Positions 5,035 through 36,289 of a stretch of 64,000 nucleotides of DNA are shown here, piece by piece. Both the position numbers and the translations under genes were made by a program. The notes under the pieces were generated by a model, which saw nothing but the letters and a program-made list of their open reading frames with translations, was not told where the DNA came from and did no database searches. The stretch is from Escherichia phage E26. The DNA is taken from the sequence record MN655998.1. One strand, 5' to 3'. The first letter of the stretch is position 1; the number at the start of each line of letters is the position of its first letter.

Positions 5035-5778
5035 TCATTCTCCGTCAGTTCGTTTCAGGTATTCCAACGCTGCATATAGTCTTTGCGGATCGTCTTTGAA
5101 CATTCCTAATCCGGCGTTACATTTTCCACAAAGAACACCTCTTATCTTACCAGTCTTATGATTATGGTCAAGATGTTTCCACTTTTGGCGTTTTCTCTCG
5201 CCGCATCGTTCATTTATGAATTTTACACCGCATATCTCGCAATTGTCAACTCTGTCTAAAATTTCTAGCGCTTCTCGTTTTGTTATTTTTATACCATCTT
5301 CGGCGTGGTGATATGGTCTATCTAGTTCTCGTTCTCGTTTCTCAAACAATCGACACTCATCAGAACAATACTTTTGAGATGCGTTTATTGCAACAAATGG
5401 TTTACCGCATTTAGCGCATTCTCGTTCAATCTTTATGTTTTGTGTCTGATCCAACGATGCGCAACGAGAACAGCAAAATTTATGATAGCCTCTAGAGTAT
5501 GTATGATAATTTACAGGATTTGGGCATCTTGCACATTTAACTATTCCTGTTATTCCGTGGCGCAATCTATAAACAGCCTCGTTATATGGTTGTTGATTTC
5601 TGAGACCTCCATTACAGAACTTAAACTCATTCCTTATAATCTGAAATTCCGCAGGATACAATTTTTCCATTTCTGGAATTTTATTTTCTTTAAAAAGATT
5701 TGAGTTTAGTCTATTTCCGCTTTTCGCCTCCAGAACATCAACAATAAACTTTTTGATGTTCACTTTTTCTCTCTCCAA
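5035..5778 (-). CDS. HNH (endonuclease VII-type) homing endonuclease-like protein with N-terminal Cys clusters
   Basis: C-terminal HLDHNHKTGKIRGVLCGKCN motif; several CxxC pairs; track start is TTG, true start may be GTG at 5763. Confidence 0.65.
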   Translation of the reverse strand: MEREKVNIKKFIVDVLEAKSGNRLNSNLFKENKIPEMEKLYPAEFQIIRNEFKFCNGGLRNQQPYNEAVYRLRHGITGIVKCARCPNPVNYHTYSRGYHKFCCSRCASLDQTQNIKIERECAKCGKPFVAINASQKYCSDECRLFEKRERELDRPYHHAEDGIKITKREALEILDRVDNCEICGVKFINERCGERKRQKWKHLDHNHKTGKIRGVLCGKCNAGLGMFKDDPQRLYAALEYLKRTDGE

Positions 5779-27097: not shown

Positions 27098-27187
27098 AGT
27101 CTCTTCCTCTCTTCGTTTTCGATGCTCTCACTATATCATAGAAAAATAAAAAGGGAAACCCCTTTCGGAGTCTCCCTTATAAAGCCA

Positions 27188-27476: not shown

Positions 27477-27704
27477 TTATTTTACCTCTGGGATATAATC
27501 AATTATTAAAGAAAATTCATCTTCTGATACATTATAGCTATGTGAGATTGTACCCGTCAAGACCTCAAGATCCGGTGATTTGATATTGCACGGATCGATA
27601 ATCACCGGAACGCCGCAATCTCTCAAAAATAATTTGGCGAAATACGGCACGAGGTCAGTTTCAAACTCTGCTTCTTCCAGCAAACGGGAAATGTTAATTT
27701 TCAA
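27477..27704 (-). CDS. hypothetical protein
   Basis: ORF tiling. Confidence 0.4.
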
Positions 27705-28227
27705 TCACATAAAATTGGTCCAGGCTAGGCAATTCCTCAGTCAATACATCTTCAACCTTTGGCGCTTTCGGTTTATTGACCGATTCCTCGTAGTTGTTGA
27801 TTTTATCGTAAATGTCCTGTATGAATGCCTCATCAGCAATCTGGCACATATCAGCGTCGCGTTCGTCATATACATGATGCACAAAATATTTGTATTTTGC
27901 GGCTGTCGCTGTTCTCTCTTTTTTAATGCGCTGTACAAAAGCATTAAAGCACGCTTGCGTGATGTAAGCATGAGGATTTTTATACTTTGTCTCGTCAAAA
28001 TTAATCAAACCCTTGACCGCCGCTTCGATTCCGTCGTCGATCATTTCTTCGCGCCATGTTTGACTATAACCAGAAAAGTTAAAACGACGTGATAGATTTT
28101 TAGAGATTTGCATAATTGCTAGGCCGATTTGATCGCTCATTGGAACTTGCCGACCTTCTGCTGCAATTTGTTGTTTCCAACGGCAAATTTCTTCGTAAAG
28201 CTCTTTATTGTTTACATAATCAGACAC
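27694..28227 (-). CDS. 55: late transcription sigma factor gp55
   Basis: [23 protein letters not shown]...[22 protein letters not shown] matches T4 gp55. Confidence 0.85.
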
Positions 28228-28267
28228 TTCGCACCCTCGCTATTATTTAGGAAATAACCCTTTCGGG

Positions 28268-29737
28268 CTATTCCCCATTACCATTATACTTTCTTTGCTT
28301 AGTTATCCACACTCTAACCATCTCTACTGATTCACCATCAGACGGATCAAGAGTTTTTCCTTTTTTCTTCATGCGATACTTAAATCCGTTAAATCTTGCA
28401 TTCTCTTGCTCGTTAAAGTCGAACATCTTTTTAAATGATTTTCTCCCTTTACGCTCACCACATTCTAGCGGAATCATTCGGTCTGTTATTACATTGGCAT
28501 TAGGTAGAAACGTTTTTAGATAATCCACCAACGCCCAATCAGGAACATATAGATTAACATTCTCCTTGCTCTCGTTGTCTCTCAGGTTACAACGCAAACA
28601 TAATTGAAATGCTGGTTCCAGATAATCAGACACATGACGCGCTTTCAAAAACTCGTTTGTCGGGAGATCACAACTATTAGCAAGACCTTTTAAAATATCA
28701 ATCTCCCATCGTTGAGGGTTAAAGCTGAACATCACAGCAACATTTTTATGATGAATGTAAGAGTTAAGACCATAAGATCCGTAAGGTATCCGCTCACCAA
28801 TACCATTTGTGCACGCTTCACGGTCCCGATTCACGGTATAAATGAAGTCATCGCCACATTCATTTTTAACCATATCAACAAGACGTTCAAAGGTATTGTT
28901 TGTTTCTGACTGGTGACGCGACCAGCGTTCGGAGTCAGTCATAAGGATGATGTTAACTCTATCTGTATTTTTATACTCTTTGAAATATAGTCTGGATTCT
29001 AGCGCACTCGGAACAAAATCGCAATTTGCATAGTATCGTAGATACTTCCCACTATATGTATCAAAGAGATTTGCACATGCTATCGTAACCTTTTTAAAGT
29101 CTCCCCACGTACCGTGTTTGTTATCGTTCAAGAAAACAATTTTCGACCCATTCTTCCGGTGTCCTTCGTTATGTTTTACCATAACGTTGATTTTCTTCTC
29201 TAATAACGCCTCATAAAGCCCTCTAAGAGAAGAATCGATCATATCAGTACCATCCTTTGCACTTTCTATCTTTTCTTTGATAGCGGCCTTCTCAGAGTCT
29301 TTTAGAACTAAGTTCTGTAGGCATTCCGATTCGTCGGCGATTGGTTCGCAATGCTTCGTGATAAGTTCAAGATTAGACTTAAACGGATACTCATTAAATT
29401 CAACCAGTTGAGGAACTTCATCAATGTAAAGAGCATATTCACCAAACATTTTTGAACGTTCCATATTAGATAACGCTGTATGTGTAATGAATATCACATC
29501 AGCACCGTCTTTAACTGATTGCATTATCGACGCTTGCACTGTCTTAAGGCTTCTTAGTCTTGTGCTATCGATCAAGACAGCACGACCGCCCATTCTTTTA
29601 AACTTATTGTAAGATTGTTCACTTAAAACACGAGATGGCGAAGCAATAACCGCTTTTTCTTTTGTCTCTAGGACGTGGGAAAGTATAGCATCAGTTTTCC
29701 CCGCCGCTGGCAATGCGATTAATGTTTCAATCTTCAT
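28268..29737 (-). CDS. P-loop NTPase of unknown function with Cys/Lys-rich C-terminus
   Basis: Walker A-like ALPAAGKTD, Walker B-like LYIDEVPQ about 95 aa later; not recognised as a T4 core gene. Confidence 0.5.
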   Translation of the reverse strand: MKIETLIALPAAGKTDAILSHVLETKEKAVIASPSRVLSEQSYNKFKRMGGRAVLIDSTRLRSLKTVQASIMQSVKDGADVIFITHTALSNMERSKMFGEYALYIDEVPQLVEFNEYPFKSNLELITKHCEPIADESECLQNLVLKDSEKAAIKEKIESAKDGTDMIDSSLRGLYEALLEKKINVMVKHNEGHRKNGSKIVFLNDNKHGTWGDFKKVTIACANLFDTYSGKYLRYYANCDFVPSALESRLYFKEYKNTDRVNIILMTDSERWSRHQSETNNTFERLVDMVKNECGDDFIYTVNRDREACTNGIGERIPYGSYGLNSYIHHKNVAVMFSFNPQRWEIDILKGLANSCDLPTNEFLKARHVSDYLEPAFQLCLRCNLRDNESKENVNLYVPDWALVDYLKTFLPNANVITDRMIPLECGERKGRKSFKKMFDFNEQENARFNGFKYRMKKKGKTLDPSDGESVEMVRVWITKQRKYNGNGE

Positions 29738-30042
29738 TAGAAACCCTTACGTCGTGCTTTCTGGCATTTCTTGATCATTTTATCAGAAATTTCGCGCTTA
29801 GGTGCAAGCTCTTTCACACCGAAAGCACTAATGCCAAATTCAGAGAGAATATATTCAACCAACAATTCACGCACACGCGCTTTACCGATATTCACGCCGT
29901 TATTTTTCAGATATGTCTGGCCTTCGACTTGCATCAGATCTAAATCTGCGTCGGTAATATTGATTTCTTCCCTGCGCCCAAATCGAGAATAAACCATGTG
30001 TGCGATTGCATTGTGTACTAACATAATATATTCCTCACTCAA
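29737..30042 (-). CDS. hypothetical protein
   Basis: ORF tiling; track start is TTG. Confidence 0.4.
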   Translation of the reverse strand: MSEEYIMLVHNAIAHMVYSRFGRREEINITDADLDLMQVEGQTYLKNNGVNIGKARVRELLVEYILSEFGISAFGVKELAPKREISDKMIKKCQKARRKGF

Positions 30043-30045
30043 GAA

Positions 30046-30204
30046 TTACTTAATGATACTTACTTTACCAGATCCATGACAATGAGCGCAACACCCATCA
30101 CCGCGCAATCCTGTCCCGTTACAGTGTTTACACGTCTTCAACGGTAAAGCCATTATAGCAAATAAAGCAATAATGAACACCGAAACTAAATTCTCAATAA
30201 TCAT
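30046..30204 (-). CDS. membrane-anchored DnaJ-type zinc-finger microprotein (52 aa, below track cutoff)
   Basis: Hand-translated MIIENLVSVFIIALFAIMALPLKTCKHCNGTGLRGDGCCAHCHGSGKVSIIK; GAGGG RBS. Confidence 0.35.
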   Translation of the reverse strand: MIIENLVSVFIIALFAIMALPLKTCKHCNGTGLRGDGCCAHCHGSGKVSIIK

Positions 30205-30463
30205 AAATCGCCCTCAGTTCTTTATAGCCTCCAATGTGCTCGTTGTCAATGAATATCTGGGGGTATACAAACCGGAGGCTCTTTGAGTTTAGCCTCCCCG
30301 CCAGCTCTTCAATCATATCACGGTCGGGAATAATGTCAACCCCGACCTGCTTGAATACTGGTTTAAGTGTATACGGAATACCCAGATCATCCAGTAGCTT
30401 CATTGCACCAATACAACCATAACAATGATAAGCCTCTTTCGGTATACCGTATATCTCGATCAT
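30194..30463 (-). CDS. nrdH: glutaredoxin-like protein (NrdH-like)
   Basis: CYGC active site, 89 aa, glutaredoxin fold pattern; adjacent to nrd genes. Confidence 0.65.
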   Translation of the reverse strand: MIEIYGIPKEAYHCYGCIGAMKLLDDLGIPYTLKPVFKQVGVDIIPDRDMIEELAGRLNSKSLRFVYPQIFIDNEHIGGYKELRAIYDY

Positions 30464-30966
30464 TTCTCAGCCTTTAATCTTTCTAGTTCTTCTTCCAGTT
30501 CCTTAATGCGCTTCTCGCGTTCAATATCACGTTGGATCTTAGTGGCGAATACTCGTTTAAACTGATTATAGTCATCAATTTTAAATACTTCCTCTTCACC
30601 ATATCGACGTACAGAAACTTCGTAGTTGTTGAAAAATTGTTCCAACATTGCATCAGTGGTCAGTTCTGCCGATACCACTTTAAAATGACGTTCTTCTGAT
30701 TGCAAAAACCAGTTGTGCGCGTATTCCCGTACATCATCAACATTGCGGCAGGTGTATACCGTGCCATCAATTTCAATCACAGAAACATAATTCACATCCG
30801 ATGCATGGTGATCAAATGCGATAACTTTAAATGGACGGTCGCCTATAAACTCTGCTATTGCATCATTTGCAACGCTAAAGTTTGCAAAATCTTCTCTCGT
30901 TTTCTTATCTTTCCACTGATAGGTCACGCCAGCAACAAACATATTACCATCCTCGCTCTTTACCAA
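30460..30966 (-). CDS. paralog family A member 1
   Basis: GVTYQWKDKKTREDF N-motif, C-terminal coiled coil; similar to neighbours. Confidence 0.55.
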   Translation of the reverse strand: MVKSEDGNMFVAGVTYQWKDKKTREDFANFSVANDAIAEFIGDRPFKVIAFDHHASDVNYVSVIEIDGTVYTCRNVDDVREYAHNWFLQSEERHFKVVSAELTTDAMLEQFFNNYEVSVRRYGEEEVFKIDDYNQFKRVFATKIQRDIEREKRIKELEEELERLKAEK

Positions 30967-31480
30967 TCAAAAATTCAACTTCACGACGTTTAATGTCTTC
31001 TTGAAGGTCTTTAATCTTCTGTCGATCTTGCATGATTTCGTCCATCTTGTCAAGTGCTGTAATGAAGTCATCGAAACGTTCAAAGGTTTTACCTTCATTT
31101 GCTTCGCCAAATTTAACCATTGTCAGGCCGTAACGACTACTAAACAGACGTTTCAACTGTCCAACGATTTTAGAATCAGTGGTTATAACTTCCAATTCTT
31201 CTACTTCACGAAAGAATTTTCTATCGAATGGACTAAAGAAATATGTTGACGTCCAAATGTCTTTTCCTGTAGCAGTTTTCGTCGTATGCTCGACCCCATC
31301 GAGTTCTATTACATTAATCCAACCATTATCATCGATCTCGATGATGGTAAATGGCTTGTCACCAATAGCTGCACTAATATCGCTGTTAAGTGGAGAAAGA
31401 ACACCTTCTCCGTTAGTAATAAACTCAGTTTTAGCGTTTTCGTCTTTCCAGGTGTAAGTTTTACCAATTTCCCATTTCAT
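30944..31480 (-). CDS. paralog family A member 2
   Basis: GKTYTWKDENAKTEF; C-terminal FITALDKM + coiled coil. Confidence 0.55.
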   Translation of the reverse strand: MKWEIGKTYTWKDENAKTEFITNGEGVLSPLNSDISAAIGDKPFTIIEIDDNGWINVIELDGVEHTTKTATGKDIWTSTYFFSPFDRKFFREVEELEVITTDSKIVGQLKRLFSSRYGLTMVKFGEANEGKTFERFDDFITALDKMDEIMQDRQKIKDLQEDIKRREVEFLIGKERGW

Positions 31481-31492
31481 AATATAGTCCCC

Positions 31493-31993
31493 TTAACCGA
31501 TTTTATCAAGTTCGTTTAATGCTTTCTCTGCTTCCTGTATAGCTTGCACCCTTTCCGGCATTTTGTCAAGAAAATCTTTCAACTCTTCAAAACTGGAGAT
31601 ATGACGCAAGGCGTTAGCACCGATAGCCGCATGTGATTTGCATTCAAAGCGGATTTTATAATTATCCATCGCCAATTTGAGAAGGTCTATTAGATCATAT
31701 TCATGACCAGGCAATAAAACTTCTTTGAAGCACGCTCGGTCGCCATCGGAAAACCATATATTATCACCAACATCGATAGAACTAATATAATCCCCTTCGT
31801 GATTATAGATTGAACGTACATTACCCCAACGGTCTACCGTAGCGACAGTAAATGGTTTATCTAGATATGTAAACACACCATCAATATTAGGTTTTTGTTC
31901 GTAACGCCAACCATCACGCAAAATACGCTTTTCGTCCTCACCAACCAACTTATATGTCTTCCCTTCTTCCCATTTCATAATATCATCTCTCAT
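31493..31993 (-). CDS. paralog family A member 3
   Basis: GKTYKLVGEDEK; C-terminal LKDFLDKMP + coiled coil. Confidence 0.55.
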   Translation of the reverse strand: MRDDIMKWEEGKTYKLVGEDEKRILRDGWRYEQKPNIDGVFTYLDKPFTVATVDRWGNVRSIYNHEGDYISSIDVGDNIWFSDGDRACFKEVLLPGHEYDLIDLLKLAMDNYKIRFECKSHAAIGANALRHISSFEELKDFLDKMPERVQAIQEAEKALNELDKIG

Positions 31994-32519
31994 TTTTGAT
32001 ACGTGATTCTAATTGGATCATACGGTCGCGCGTTTGCTTATATTCGCGGATAGCACCGATTCGGCTAGGCATACCATCCAGTACGCTCTTAATACCTTCT
32101 AGGGTAGTGATTTTAGCAATGCTATTATGCAATCCTGTCTTATCGATCAACTGAATGTCGTAGGCTTCCATAAGCAGACCCAGACGTTCTAAAGTTAGGT
32201 CTTCTTCTTTTTCTTCCGATTCTGGAATCTTAGGTTCAATAGTAACTTCGGTAAAGAAACGACGCTCAGCAGCCCAAAACCACACACCGGAACAGCCAAT
32301 AGGGGATTCTTTTAACGTCATAGAGTCGAAATCACTACCAATAATAGTAATTTCTCTAACATCACCATCATCGTCAATGTCTTCTACCATAAACGGGCGA
32401 CCAGCCAACAAGTCCACAATACATCTGTTAATAGACGACGAAAATTTAGTCAGTTCGGCTTTCGACGCTTCGCATTCAATCTTGTAAGTTTTACCAACTT
32501 CCCATTCCATAATAATCAC
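31983..32519 (-). CDS. paralog family A member 4
   Basis: GKTYKIECEASKAEL; C-terminal IKSVLDGMP + coiled coil. Confidence 0.55.
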   Translation of the reverse strand: MIIMEWEVGKTYKIECEASKAELTKFSSSINRCIVDLLAGRPFMVEDIDDDGDVREITIIGSDFDSMTLKESPIGCSGVWFWAAERRFFTEVTIEPKIPESEEKEEDLTLERLGLLMEAYDIQLIDKTGLHNSIAKITTLEGIKSVLDGMPSRIGAIREYKQTRDRMIQLESRIKNER

Positions 32520-32520
32520 C

Positions 32521-33030
32521 TCAAATAATTTTCACTGGAATACTATTAACAATCTTGTATTGTACTTGATTGTCAGACCCCCGCCACGGCTTCTTCGTTG
32601 GCATATCTTTAATATAACGACCATCTATGAACATGTCAACTGATTCTACAATTTTTCTTTGCTCATCATTCAATTGGTCAAGGGTATAACCGGACCATAG
32701 CCAAATATCTTTATTTGGCATCCATGATTTTACTTCATCGATGATCCGCTGTACACCCTTTAAATTGCGTTTATACAGCGGATCACCACCTAAGAATGTT
32801 AACCCCTGAATAAAATCAGGTCTAAGCAGATCCAGAATCAATCCCATTGTATCATCGGTGAATGGTTCCCCGTTCTTAGGATTGAGTAGGCTAGCATTAA
32901 AGCAACCATCACATGCGTGTGAACATCCGGTAACGTAAAGGGAGACTCTCACTCCCTCACCGTTAACCATATCACAATCTTTAATATCGGCATAGCGTAG
33001 TTTGCCGTATGTATCAGAACTCATATTCAA
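32521..33030 (-). CDS. nrdG: anaerobic ribonucleotide reductase activating protein (radical SAM)
   Basis: CxxxCxxC cluster CSHACDGC; 169 aa; adjacent to nrdD. Confidence 0.85.
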   Translation of the reverse strand: MNMSSDTYGKLRYADIKDCDMVNGEGVRVSLYVTGCSHACDGCFNASLLNPKNGEPFTDDTMGLILDLLRPDFIQGLTFLGGDPLYKRNLKGVQRIIDEVKSWMPNKDIWLWSGYTLDQLNDEQRKIVESVDMFIDGRYIKDMPTKKPWRGSDNQVQYKIVNSIPVKII

Positions 33031-34426: not shown

Positions 34427-36289
34427 TTACATGTGCTTAACGCGGTTTACCATCTCGGAGTGTTTCCCGTGGTTGAATGGACGCAGATCAACAGATCCAA
34501 GATATCCACTAACGCGACGGATAACATTCATCTTTTCCAGATTGTCGTTGCCGCAATCAGGACAAACAAAACCAGACTCGGTCGCTCTCATTTCCTTATT
34601 AGATCCGCATACATGACATACATCAGAAGGAGTATTAACACCGAAGTAGTGCAATTTATCCATTGCATAGTCTACTACAGTTTCAAGACCTTTCAGGTTG
34701 TTTTTCATGTCTGGGAACTCAACATAAGAGATCATGCCACCGGACGCCAGCCAGTGATAATCTTTCTCAAAGTCGATTTTCTCAAATGGTGTGACTTTCC
34801 GGTCTACGTCAAGGTGGAATGAGTTGGTGTACCAGTCTTTATCGGTAGCACCCTTAACAATACCAAATTGCTCTCGATCCAGTCGATTAAATCGATAGCA
34901 AAGGCTCTCGGCTGGCGTACCGTAAAGACTAAACCCAAGTCCGGTTTCATCCTTCCATTTTTCAGTATAATGACGCAAGATCTTAAGAATATGTTTACCG
35001 TATCGCTGCGCATCTTCCGAATCAAACGGATGAACACCAAACAGGACGCTCAATACCTCATGTAAACCAATATATCCAAGAGAGATACTAGCGCGACCAT
35101 CTTTCAACACTTCCAAAATTTCATCGTTTTGATGAATACGGAAAAATGCACCTTCTGTATACAGCACCGGAGCAACATTGGCTTTAGCGCCTTTTAAAGC
35201 GTCTACGCGACTCATGAGCGCATCAAAGCAAATAGGCATACGATTGGCTAGCTCTTGTTCGAATAGCTCAATTCTGCGCATTACAGACGCTTTACCAGCA
35301 CGAAGCGCGGCAATAAGGGCAATACGCGGAAGATTCAGAGTCACAACACCTAAGTTATTACGTCCGTCTAATACTTCTTCGCCTTTCTCATTATGCCACA
35401 CACCCAGGAAGCTACGACAACCCATCGGGCTAACCGGAACACTAGATCCAGTGATGCTACGGTTATTCTTCGCAGAGATATAATCAGGGTAAAGACGCTT
35501 ACTAGAACATTCCAATGCAAGTTGCTTAATGTCGTAGTTCGGATCTTCCGGTTTAAGGTTTAATCCTTCTTCTAAGAACATCACCAGCTTAGGAAACACC
35601 GGAGTTATACCATCTTTACCTAAACCTTTAGTTCGAACTTTCAGGATCGCTTTCTGAATCAGTTTTTCTTCCCAGCTAGTACCCATACCAAAGGTTAAAG
35701 TCACAAAAGGCGTTTGACCGTTGGTGGAGAACAAAGTGTTGATTTCATATTCCAACGCTTGATACCCGTCTAAAGTTTCTTTTTCTGTCTTCTCTTGTGC
35801 ATAGAGAGTATCAGCTTTGATTCCGTAGGTTTCGGCATCAGCAAGGTGTTTATGATATGTTTTCTCAACGTATGGCGCTAAAACCTGATCGATGTTTGCA
35901 ATTGTGGTCCCGCCATATTGATGACTTGCCACCTGTGCGATAATTTGAGCGGTTACAGCACAAGCAACGCCGATTGATTTCGGACTTTCGATTTGTGCGC
36001 TACCCAATTTAAAACCATTCTCTAACATGTCTTTGAGATTAACAAGACAGCAGTTAGTAAACGGCATAGCGGGTGCATAATCCATATCATGATAATGAAT
36101 ATCACCGTCTACATGCGCTTTATAGATGTGCTCAGGTAACACGGTTTTAGCAATCTGTTTAGACACAGCACCAGCAATCAGATCTCGACGTGTCGGGAAT
36201 GTTCGCGCGTCTTTGTTCGCGTTCTCTTTGCTTACTTCGTTTTCTTTACCCGTTGCGATCTCTGTAATGTCTTTGATTAGTTTTTCCAT
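34427..36289 (-). CDS. nrdD: anaerobic ribonucleoside-triphosphate reductase (glycyl radical enzyme)
   Basis: 620 aa; C-terminal glycyl radical motif RVSGYLG and zinc ribbon CHVCGS...CPDCG. Confidence 0.95.
   Translation of the reverse strand: MEKLIKDITEIATGKENEVSKENANKDARTFPTRRDLIAGAVSKQIAKTVLPEHIYKAHVDGDIHYHDMDYAPAMPFTNCCLVNLKDMLENGFKLGSAQIESPKSIGVACAVTAQIIAQVASHQYGGTTIANIDQVLAPYVEKTYHKHLADAETYGIKADTLYAQEKTEKETLDGYQALEYEINTLFSTNGQTPFVTLTFGMGTSWEEKLIQKAILKVRTKGLGKDGITPVFPKLVMFLEEGLNLKPEDPNYDIKQLALECSSKRLYPDYISAKNNRSITGSSVPVSPMGCRSFLGVWHNEKGEEVLDGRNNLGVVTLNLPRIALIAALRAGKASVMRRIELFEQELANRMPICFDALMSRVDALKGAKANVAPVLYTEGAFFRIHQNDEILEVLKDGRASISLGYIGLHEVLSVLFGVHPFDSEDAQRYGKHILKILRHYTEKWKDETGLGFSLYGTPAESLCYRFNRLDREQFGIVKGATDKDWYTNSFHLDVDRKVTPFEKIDFEKDYHWLASGGMISYVEFPDMKNNLKGLETVVDYAMDKLHYFGVNTPSDVCHVCGSNKEMRATESGFVCPDCGNDNLEKMNVIRRVSGYLGSVDLRPFNHGKHSEMVNRVKHM

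Follow-up and report, generated by a model that had tools for sequence, protein, structure and literature searches.

Studies of phage DNA replication take bacteriophage T4 as their reference model. Among the T4 helicases, UvsW is a member of superfamily 2 (SF2), Dda belongs to SF1B and gp41 is DnaB-like. Elsewhere in SF2, PriA is dedicated to primosome assembly, and the UL9 origin-binding protein of herpesviruses joins a helicase to a C-terminal DNA-binding domain. The XPD/Rad3/DinG helicases are SF2 enzymes of 5'-3' polarity with a 4Fe-4S domain and a length of 550-740 amino acids (aa). This study concerns a gene in a stretch of 64,000 nucleotides from Escherichia phage E26 (record MN655998.1; the whole stretch is called the window below) that encodes an SF2 helicase-like protein of 489 aa. 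UvsW, Dda and gp41 are not orthologous to this protein, and Dda and gp41 are encoded separately in the window.

Since 2003, sequence databases have listed the gene as encoding a hypothetical protein. Its product is 100% identical to RB49ORF044c of phage RB49 (AAQ15319), which is annotated in this way. A preliminary description of the window, made from the sequence alone, called the product an unrecognised P-loop NTPase of 489 aa. The open reading frame (ORF) is present as described, on the minus strand, with its ATG at 29737 and its stop codon at 28268-28270 in the ORF list. The word "unrecognised" does not hold entirely: a weak DEAD/DEAH match (E=0.069) was listed for the gene in an earlier genome comparison (Nolan et al., 2006; PMC1524935), and one record, that of phage W115, annotates the protein as "putative helicase." SF2-like helicase domains have also been described in fusion with AEP primases of the all3500 family, and their closest relatives were found to be uncharacterised proteins of T4-like phages (Kazlauskas et al., 2018; PMC5862659). 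These helicase domains very probably belong to the family of the window protein, with which pVOG1685 may be identical. The same study linked the related pVOG9714 to UL9 and gave SPbeta as the other phage from which helicases of this kind come (Kazlauskas et al., 2018; PMC5862659). A hidden Markov model (HMM) of the family had no match in the whole SPbeta genome, so that no tie to pVOG9714 was established.

The predicted structure of the protein is that of a two-domain SF2 helicase. The AlphaFold2 (AF2) model (pLDDT 87.6, pTM 0.75) consists of a first RecA-like domain, an insertion of about 105 residues, a second RecA-like domain, a disordered linker and two long C-terminal helices. As in SF2 enzymes, motifs I and II lie in the first RecA-like domain, which also carries motifs Ia and Ib, and the arginines of motif VI in the second domain face the ATP site. 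The coordinates of these parts are collected in Table 1. The preliminary description had reported a helicase-type spacing of Walker A and Walker B, and this is borne out by a distance of 92 residues between K14 and D106, in motifs that are both invariant. It had also read the Walker A sequence ALPAAGKTD correctly, although the computed position is residues 8-16 and not 9-16. Its large C-terminal extension, on the other hand, is mostly the second RecA-like domain, and only the last ~70 residues form a true extension.

The conservation of the protein was followed in a subfamily alignment of 42 T4-like sequences and in a family alignment of 70 sequences with members down to ~18% identity. Residues invariant in the T4-like sequences include P10, G13-K14-T15, D106-E107, P109, G323, N325, Q378, R382, R386 and VPD398-400. 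In the family alignment the invariant set narrows to just the catalytic residues, namely K14, D106, E107, the G323 and N325 of a "YGLN" motif (HGLN-type) in the second RecA-like domain, and the motif VI pattern Q378-x3-R382-x3-R386. Invariance of these residues down to ~18% identity argues for a working ATPase, and the pattern agrees with that expected of an active two-domain ATPase whose motif VI supplies arginine fingers. The cysteines behave differently. The preliminary description had singled out the Cys pairs CLRCN (residues 380-384) and PLECGER (residues 423-429) as a feature, but CLRCN is part of motif VI and its cysteines vary. Most relatives have S or T in place of C383, and C426, the Cys of PLECGER, is variable and falls within the linker of low model confidence. 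C130 and C380 are invariant in the T4-like subfamily only and are replaced by I, L or V in the wider family; judged from the alignments, they are core hydrophobic positions. A zinc finger or Cys-pair metal site was rejected on these grounds.

The preliminary description was right that the end of the protein is basic. The last 70 residues contain 18 K or R and 10 D or E; the core, by contrast, has a net acidic composition (54 K or R vs. 59 D or E). The two tail helices of the model span residues 443-458 and 468-486, and E445 and W477 are invariant in the tail within the T4-like subfamily. The nucleic-acid binding that was also proposed for the tail is plausible, because relatives carry a helix-turn-helix (HTH) at the same position. 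Taken as a whole, the gene product is in all likelihood an active SF2 nucleic-acid motor, and most likely a DNA helicase or translocase.

Sequence searches place the protein in SF2 in general terms. The Pfam DEAD entry is a general model of the first SF2 domain; it was matched marginally by the window protein (27.4 bits vs. a cut-off of 26, residues 11-130) and by 51 of its 70 relatives; ResIII was matched by 30 of the 70. The PHROG scan returned phrog_2467 ("unknown function") with E=8.8e-175 over residues 1-489, and the NCBIfam scan of the protein returned no match. Searches of PDB sequences with the single protein or with a close-family profile found nothing significant. A broad-family profile found PriA as the best match (E=4.6e-7), with reverse gyrase, Mfd, UvrB, XPB, DDX52 and other DEAD-box proteins also among the best. 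The protein's motifs I, Ia, Ib and II align to those of RhlE and PriA. The match to PriA, likewise an SF2 helicase, covers ~105 residues only; the N-terminal DNA-binding domains and the Cys-rich zinc insert of PriA are not present in the window protein, and the top 60 fold matches of the model do not include PriA.

In the fold search, which the preliminary description had recommended and which supported the two-domain SF2 fold, the overall fold of the model was closest to members of the XPD/Rad3/DinG group. XPD/DinG structures align over 313-370 residues, as compared with ~240-256 residues for other two-domain SF2 matches such as Snf2, SecA and HsdR and single domains of 130-165 residues for DEAD-box structures. 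With ~100 residues more in these alignments, the insertion of the modelled protein may overlay the Arch domain of XPD and DinG. However, the 4Fe-4S domain of that group is lacking: there is no Cys in residues 1-129, and motifs Ia and II are separated by ~60 residues. Members of the CRISPR-associated CasDinG type are also without the Fe-S cluster, and the missing cluster alone leaves a distant relationship possible. The window protein did not match Pfam DEAD_2, Helicase_C_2 or DinG at E<=1. Alignment of the family with hhalign was not significant for E. coli DinG (probability 0.6%) or for RhlE, such single-sequence templates being too weak, and neither XPD nor DinG occurs among the best 60 PDB sequence matches of the family profile. 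The window protein also differs from the group in its shorter length and its basic C-terminal tail. We have classed it as a distinct SF2 family with XPD/DinG-like architecture and not as a DinG. It is an uncharacterised SF2 helicase with an unusual build, XPD-like and free of Fe-S.

The family extends well beyond the T4-like phages. A profile search of 1.84 billion representatives found 1330 proteins at E<=1e-3 and 766 at E<=1e-10. The 1330 representatives, which correspond approximately to clusters at 50% identity, come from phages and small integrative islands. Among 195 relatives that were fetched, 67 have at least 700 aa, and most of these long forms have a conserved hhhDxDxG ~100 residues past the helicase and often a GxGNxxFF near the end. 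The C-terminal region of the long forms matches PHROG 9765 ("DNA primase," E=1e-8) and, weakly, PriCT_1, and in the one example modelled (pLDDT 89) it folds as an AEP primase-polymerase. The D74, R110 and D156 that are invariant in the alignment of this domain would fit AEP motifs I, II (with Arg replacing His) and III. One long form is a 762-aa "hypothetical protein" of Atu_ph07, a T4-related jumbo phage of Agrobacterium (L003 5908-8196). It carries the helicase at residues 1-446 and the AEP/PriCT-like part at residues 469-760 (E=2e-31 to the AEP-domain HMM). In Atu_ph07, as in the other fusions found here, the helicase is N-terminal, whereas it follows the primase in those described previously (Kazlauskas et al., 2018; PMC5862659). 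The window protein belongs to the same sequence family as these helicase-AEP-PriCT fusions and represents a stand-alone short form without a primase.

Among the 70 relatives of the family alignment, 10 bacterial short forms carry a C-terminal HTH (HTH_23, HTH_7 and others) at the position of the tail, and other relatives have GRP-rich basic tails. The arrangement of UL9 resembles that of these relatives, namely a small DNA-binding module behind an SF2 motor; the ~70-residue tail of the window protein is not recognisable as a specific DNA-binding domain. The bacterial members examined lie in small islands (Table 1) with a tyrosine integrase or a serine recombinase/resolvase and with defence cargo, to which an HNH nuclease also belongs. 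No other replication protein was recognisable among the Pfam-annotated neighbours in these islands. By their gene content, the islands may form an undescribed class of small integrative elements in which the helicase, with or without the AEP primase, is the hallmark replication gene. The islands and some jumbo phages appear to use the family helicase, often AEP-fused, as a replication module.

In phages, the gene was found by tblastn in 243 records. Krischvirus accounts for 58 records with 95% identity or more (at least 99% in 54 of them), and the helicase region of the window is 99.0-99.5% identical to Krischvirus genomes such as JEP8, JSE, ECD7 and RB49. About 185 other T4-like phages carry the gene with 34-43% identity over its full length. 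Together with the invariant residues, conservation of this extent goes far past what chance would produce. The 185 phages include Pseudotevenvirus (RB43, RB16), many Aeromonas phages (25, 65, PX29 and AS-gz among them), and phages of Proteus, Morganella, Providencia, Serratia, Cronobacter, Citrobacter, Enterobacter and Yersinia. Two matches, in Atu_ph07 and PH357, are weak and distant. No T4-type phage occurred in the organism tallies of the tblastn search or in 50 rows sampled from the 243 records, and the 55-nrdH locus of T4 had no match to the helicase. T4 keeps 55, 55.2 and a-gt.4, and an 87-aa gene, 55.1, fills the slot of the helicase. T4 55.1 has been reported to interact with FolD and UvrA (PMC4396842); as a possible remnant of the helicase it was rejected, since the two proteins were unrelated on comparison. 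The preliminary description had thus been correct that the protein is not a T4 core gene, and its search for homology to a characterised T4-like gene, when carried out, found no homologue in T4. Decades of T4 genetics missed the helicase because the gene is absent from T4.

The gene lies between gene 55 and the nrd cluster, as had been stated. The order nrdH - (55.2) - helicase - 55 - a-gt.4 - 47 recurs across distant lineages of the Straboviridae. It was checked in Krischvirus, Aeromonas phage 65 (Emmerichvirinae, Ishigurovirus), AS-gz (Tulanevirus), Proteus phage PM2 (Bragavirus) and Serratia phage Muldoon (Muldoonvirus); in Pseudotevenvirus the downstream side of the helicase is rearranged. 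Identity of the helicase to that of the window broadly tracks identity of gp55 (42 and 62% in PM2, 40 and 60% in Muldoon, 36 and 50% in AS-gz, 37 and 39% in phage 65, respectively), which fits long vertical residence at the locus. In the window, a Shine-Dalgarno sequence (AAGGG) precedes the helicase ATG, and this ATG overlaps the TAA of the 55.2 homologue upstream (TAATG). This junction suggests that the helicase is translationally coupled to the 55.2 homologue, and a start/stop overlap with the upstream gene also occurs at other T4-like loci. A conserved upstream partner was rejected: AS-gz has an unrelated gene of 191 aa directly upstream of the helicase, with 55.2 further upstream.

What does this helicase do? 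The enzyme class is well supported, and we infer a role in replication or recombination. With moderate confidence, we regard the protein as an accessory DNA helicase of replication or recombination, whose task would be to open or remodel DNA where the T4-type replisome initiates or restarts. The replication role is suggested by the frequent fusion of the family helicase to an AEP primase-polymerase with a PriCT-like region. The surroundings of the gene consist of the 46/47 recombination nuclease, gene 55 and the nrd genes. In the mechanism that we infer, ATP would sit between K14/T15 and D106/E107 of the first domain and R382/R386 of the second. Opening and closing of the two RecA-like domains, driven by hydrolysis, would move the protein along single-stranded DNA and unwind the duplex. 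The insertion at residues 111-215 would probably serve as an arch-like clamp on the strand, as in XPD and DinG, minus the Fe-S wedge, and the basic tail, in whose place relatives have an HTH, would anchor the enzyme to DNA or direct it there. The helicase would be made early or in mid-infection together with 55.2, a timing weakly suggested by flanking genes that all lie on the same strand and by a sigma-70-like site upstream of 55.2. It would then act on phage DNA at the sites where the replisome starts or restarts.

Several observations weigh against a replicative accessory helicase. Dda, gp41 and UvsX are already encoded in the window, as is gp43, so there is no obvious gap for a further helicase to fill, and replacement of a missing Dda was rejected on the same ground. 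T4 and its closest relatives do without the gene. Affinity at the level of sequence is confined to the generic region of motifs I-II, to which all the best PDB sequence matches of the broad-family profile are limited, and the likeness to XPD and DinG is seen only at the level of the fold, in a predicted structure. The AEP-domain HMM found nothing in any of the 42 T4-like short forms, and the basic two-helix tail of the T4-like subfamily contains no recognisable HTH. No iterons or origin-like repeats were found around the helicase gene or around one bacterial homologue. The literature on the gene, the PHROG and the pVOG yielded no experimental work on any member. Since the islands also carry defence cargo, a conflict-related role of the family stays in view.

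Other explanations were weighed on the same evidence. The protein could be a DinG-like repair or conflict helicase of 5'-3' polarity that clears R-loops, D-loops or protein roadblocks ahead of forks and has no part in initiation. Such a helicase may be tied functionally to the co-translated 55.2 homologue, as inhibition of topoisomerase I favours R-loops, and T4 gp55.2 is an inhibitor of E. coli topoisomerase I (PMC4396842). We consider this rather unlikely, given the absence of an Fe-S domain and of sequence matches to DinG/XPD profiles, the recurrent fusion of the family to primases and HTH modules instead of repair domains, and the different gene directly upstream in AS-gz, an Aeromonas Tulanevirus. 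A bolder proposal, which we judge to be distinctly unlikely, would make the protein a helicase dedicated to origin opening or initiation in T4-like phages other than the T-even ones, a UL9-like SF2 motor derived from an ancestral helicase-primase of mobile elements. The long form would survive in Atu_ph07, the basic tail would target specific sites in phage DNA, and the opened DNA would be handed to the gp41/gp61 primosome, while T4 would have lost the gene and come to rely on R-loop and recombination-primed initiation. The Pfam model Herpes_ori_bp (PF02399) had no match in the window protein and weak matches in 2 of the 70 relatives (best E=0.0014).

It is improbable that the protein acts in conflict, be it in anti-defence or as a defence or exclusion factor; as such it would be a translocase that either removes or obstructs the restriction or defence complexes of the host on phage DNA with unmodified cytosine, or excludes competing elements. 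The PADLOC scan gave no significant match (its sole match was an unrelated model at 13.6 bits), and neither a nuclease nor an effector domain is present in the protein. In the islands the helicase adjoins the integrase/resolvase backbone, outside recognised defence operons. Moreover, deep, syntenic and vertical-looking conservation next to gene 55 is untypical of anti-defence genes with their fast turnover. The Pfam match to the DEAD family, the DEAD-box proteins among the sequence and fold matches and the position directly upstream of gene 55 in most lineages would agree with a DEAD-box-like ATPase acting on phage mRNA or RNA polymerase, for instance in the gp55-dependent late switch. Yet motif II reads DEVP and not DEAD, the motif III position reads I-A-C-A-N with no SAT, Helicase_C is not matched, DEAD-box structures cover single domains of the model only, and DNA is indicated by the family's fusions to AEP primase and HTH. 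We consider a role as RNA helicase or transcription factor very improbable. Finally, a kinase had been raised in the preliminary description besides an accessory helicase or translocase. With the weak similarity to known helicases, it could be taken to mean a degenerate or non-motor NTPase (a kinase, loader or switch) that merely keeps the P-loop. The helicase and translocase options gain support from the SF2 assignment; the kinase option gains none, as no kinase family was matched in Pfam or NCBIfam. Throughout the family, no ATPase or arginine-finger position of either RecA domain varies, and a two-domain helicase fold is predicted with high confidence, which makes a non-motor protein scarcely credible.

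An accessory replication or recombination helicase at this locus would be of interest for several reasons. The gene adds a fourth helicase to Dda, gp41 and UvsW, at one fixed locus in very distant T4-like lineages. It also anchors a large uncharacterised SF2 family of small defence-carrying islands and some jumbo phages. The characterisation of one member would assign a function to PHROG 2467/31024 and would establish a compact type of helicase that combines an XPD-like fold with the lack of Fe-S. Do non-T-even T4-like phages initiate or restart their replication unlike T4? One characterised member would put this to the test. If the initiator proposal were true, most of the T4 superfamily would initiate replication differently from T4; if the protein were just another accessory repair helicase, the result would be an ordinary one.

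Table 1. Coordinates of the helicase gene, the parts of its product and its neighbours in the window, and of islands that carry bacterial relatives.
Feature	Coordinates	Strand	Basis or content
SF2 helicase-like CDS, 489 aa, RB49ORF044c orthologue	28268..29737 (incl. stop codon)	minus	ORF list, RB49 identity, PHROG 2467 match, AF2 model
Motif I / Walker A, ALPAAGKTD, residues 8-16	29690..29716	minus	G13, K14, T15 invariant in 42-sequence alignment
Motif II / Walker B, LYIDEVPQ ("DEVP" variant of DExx), residues 103-110	29408..29431	minus	D106, E107 invariant family-wide
Insertion of ~105 residues, residues 111-215, between motif II and motif III-like "TIACAN"; candidate arch-like accessory domain	29093..29407	minus	Model secondary structure
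RecA-like domain 2, residues ~255-419, including YGLN motif and final strand with VPD 398-400	28481..28975	minus	
Motif VI, residues 374-387 (EPAFQLCLRCNLRD), with Q378, R382, R386; contains CLRCN	28577..28618	minus	Invariant in 70/70 family sequences
Low-confidence linker (426-431) and basic helical C-terminal tail, residues 420-489	28271..28480	minus	K/R count, model helices
55.2 homologue (DUF7570), upstream neighbour of helicase	29737..30042	minus	Pfam DUF7570 E=1e-27
Gene 55 (gp55 late sigma factor), downstream neighbour of helicase	27694..28227	minus	Annotation of identical loci
nrdH	30194-30463		
nrdG	32521-33030		
nrdD	34427-36289		
Sigma-70-like promoter match TTGTCA-18-TATCAT, candidate early promoter for 55.2-helicase pair	30053..30082	minus	Consensus scan only
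Pseudomonas asiatica island	L007 6461-17678		int ... helicase-HTH ... resolvase, Pycsar (AGS_C + PycTM)
Oceanisphaera island	L017 2872-13476		Resolvase
Metagenomic contig island	L018 1977-8486		Helicase-AEP, resolvase, type I restriction-modification HsdM/HsdS
Second contig island	L019 4014-11979		Large serine recombinase, TIR-domain protein

Upstream of the helicase, the 55.2 homologue is followed by a 52-aa CxxC ORF, nrdH, four paralogous ORFs, nrdG and nrdD. All genes flanking the helicase are on its strand, and the GC content is even across the region. The 55.2 homologue has 47% identity to T4 55.2 over the aligned 74 residues. The number of sigma-70-like sites in the promoter scan was not significantly above that in shuffled controls.

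On the downstream side, the 40-bp gap between the helicase and gene 55 contains a short GC hairpin (CCCGAAAGGG) at 28257-28267 on the minus strand, directly behind the stop codon of the helicase; TTATTTCC and TAAATAATA come next. From its sequence and position the hairpin could act as a weak terminator, stabilise RNA or belong to the gene 55 promoter. It was not flagged in a terminator scan of the region; a terminator is annotated at the equivalent position in Serratia phage Muldoon. Further downstream, RB49 has a homing-endonuclease-like gene of the HNH/AP2 type, RB49ORF040c, between a-gt.4 and gene 47 (5141-5695 of the RB49 locus). The window lacks ORF040c and has a gap of only ~90 bp there (27098-27187); it thus stems from a relative of RB49, as distinct from RB49 proper.

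The 52-aa ORF (30046-30204, minus strand) is the orthologue of RB49ORF046c and is called "putative membrane protein" in phage W115. Its hydrophobic N-terminal helix precedes a pair of CxxCxGxG repeats (CKHCNGTG ... CAHCHGSG). These repeats correspond to the DnaJ-type zinc-knuckle signature, with an E-value of only 0.04 for Pfam DnaJ_CXXCXGXG. Between nrdH and nrdG, the four tandem paralogous ORFs (30460-32519, minus strand; 168, 178, 166 and 178 aa) have a mutual identity of 19-27%, a common N-terminal "KWE.GKTY ... PF.V..D" and a charged, helix-like C-terminus. Their starts are marked by DNA repeats spaced ~500-530 bp. The array appears to be variable, because RB49 and JSE annotate this stretch as ORFs of differing sizes.

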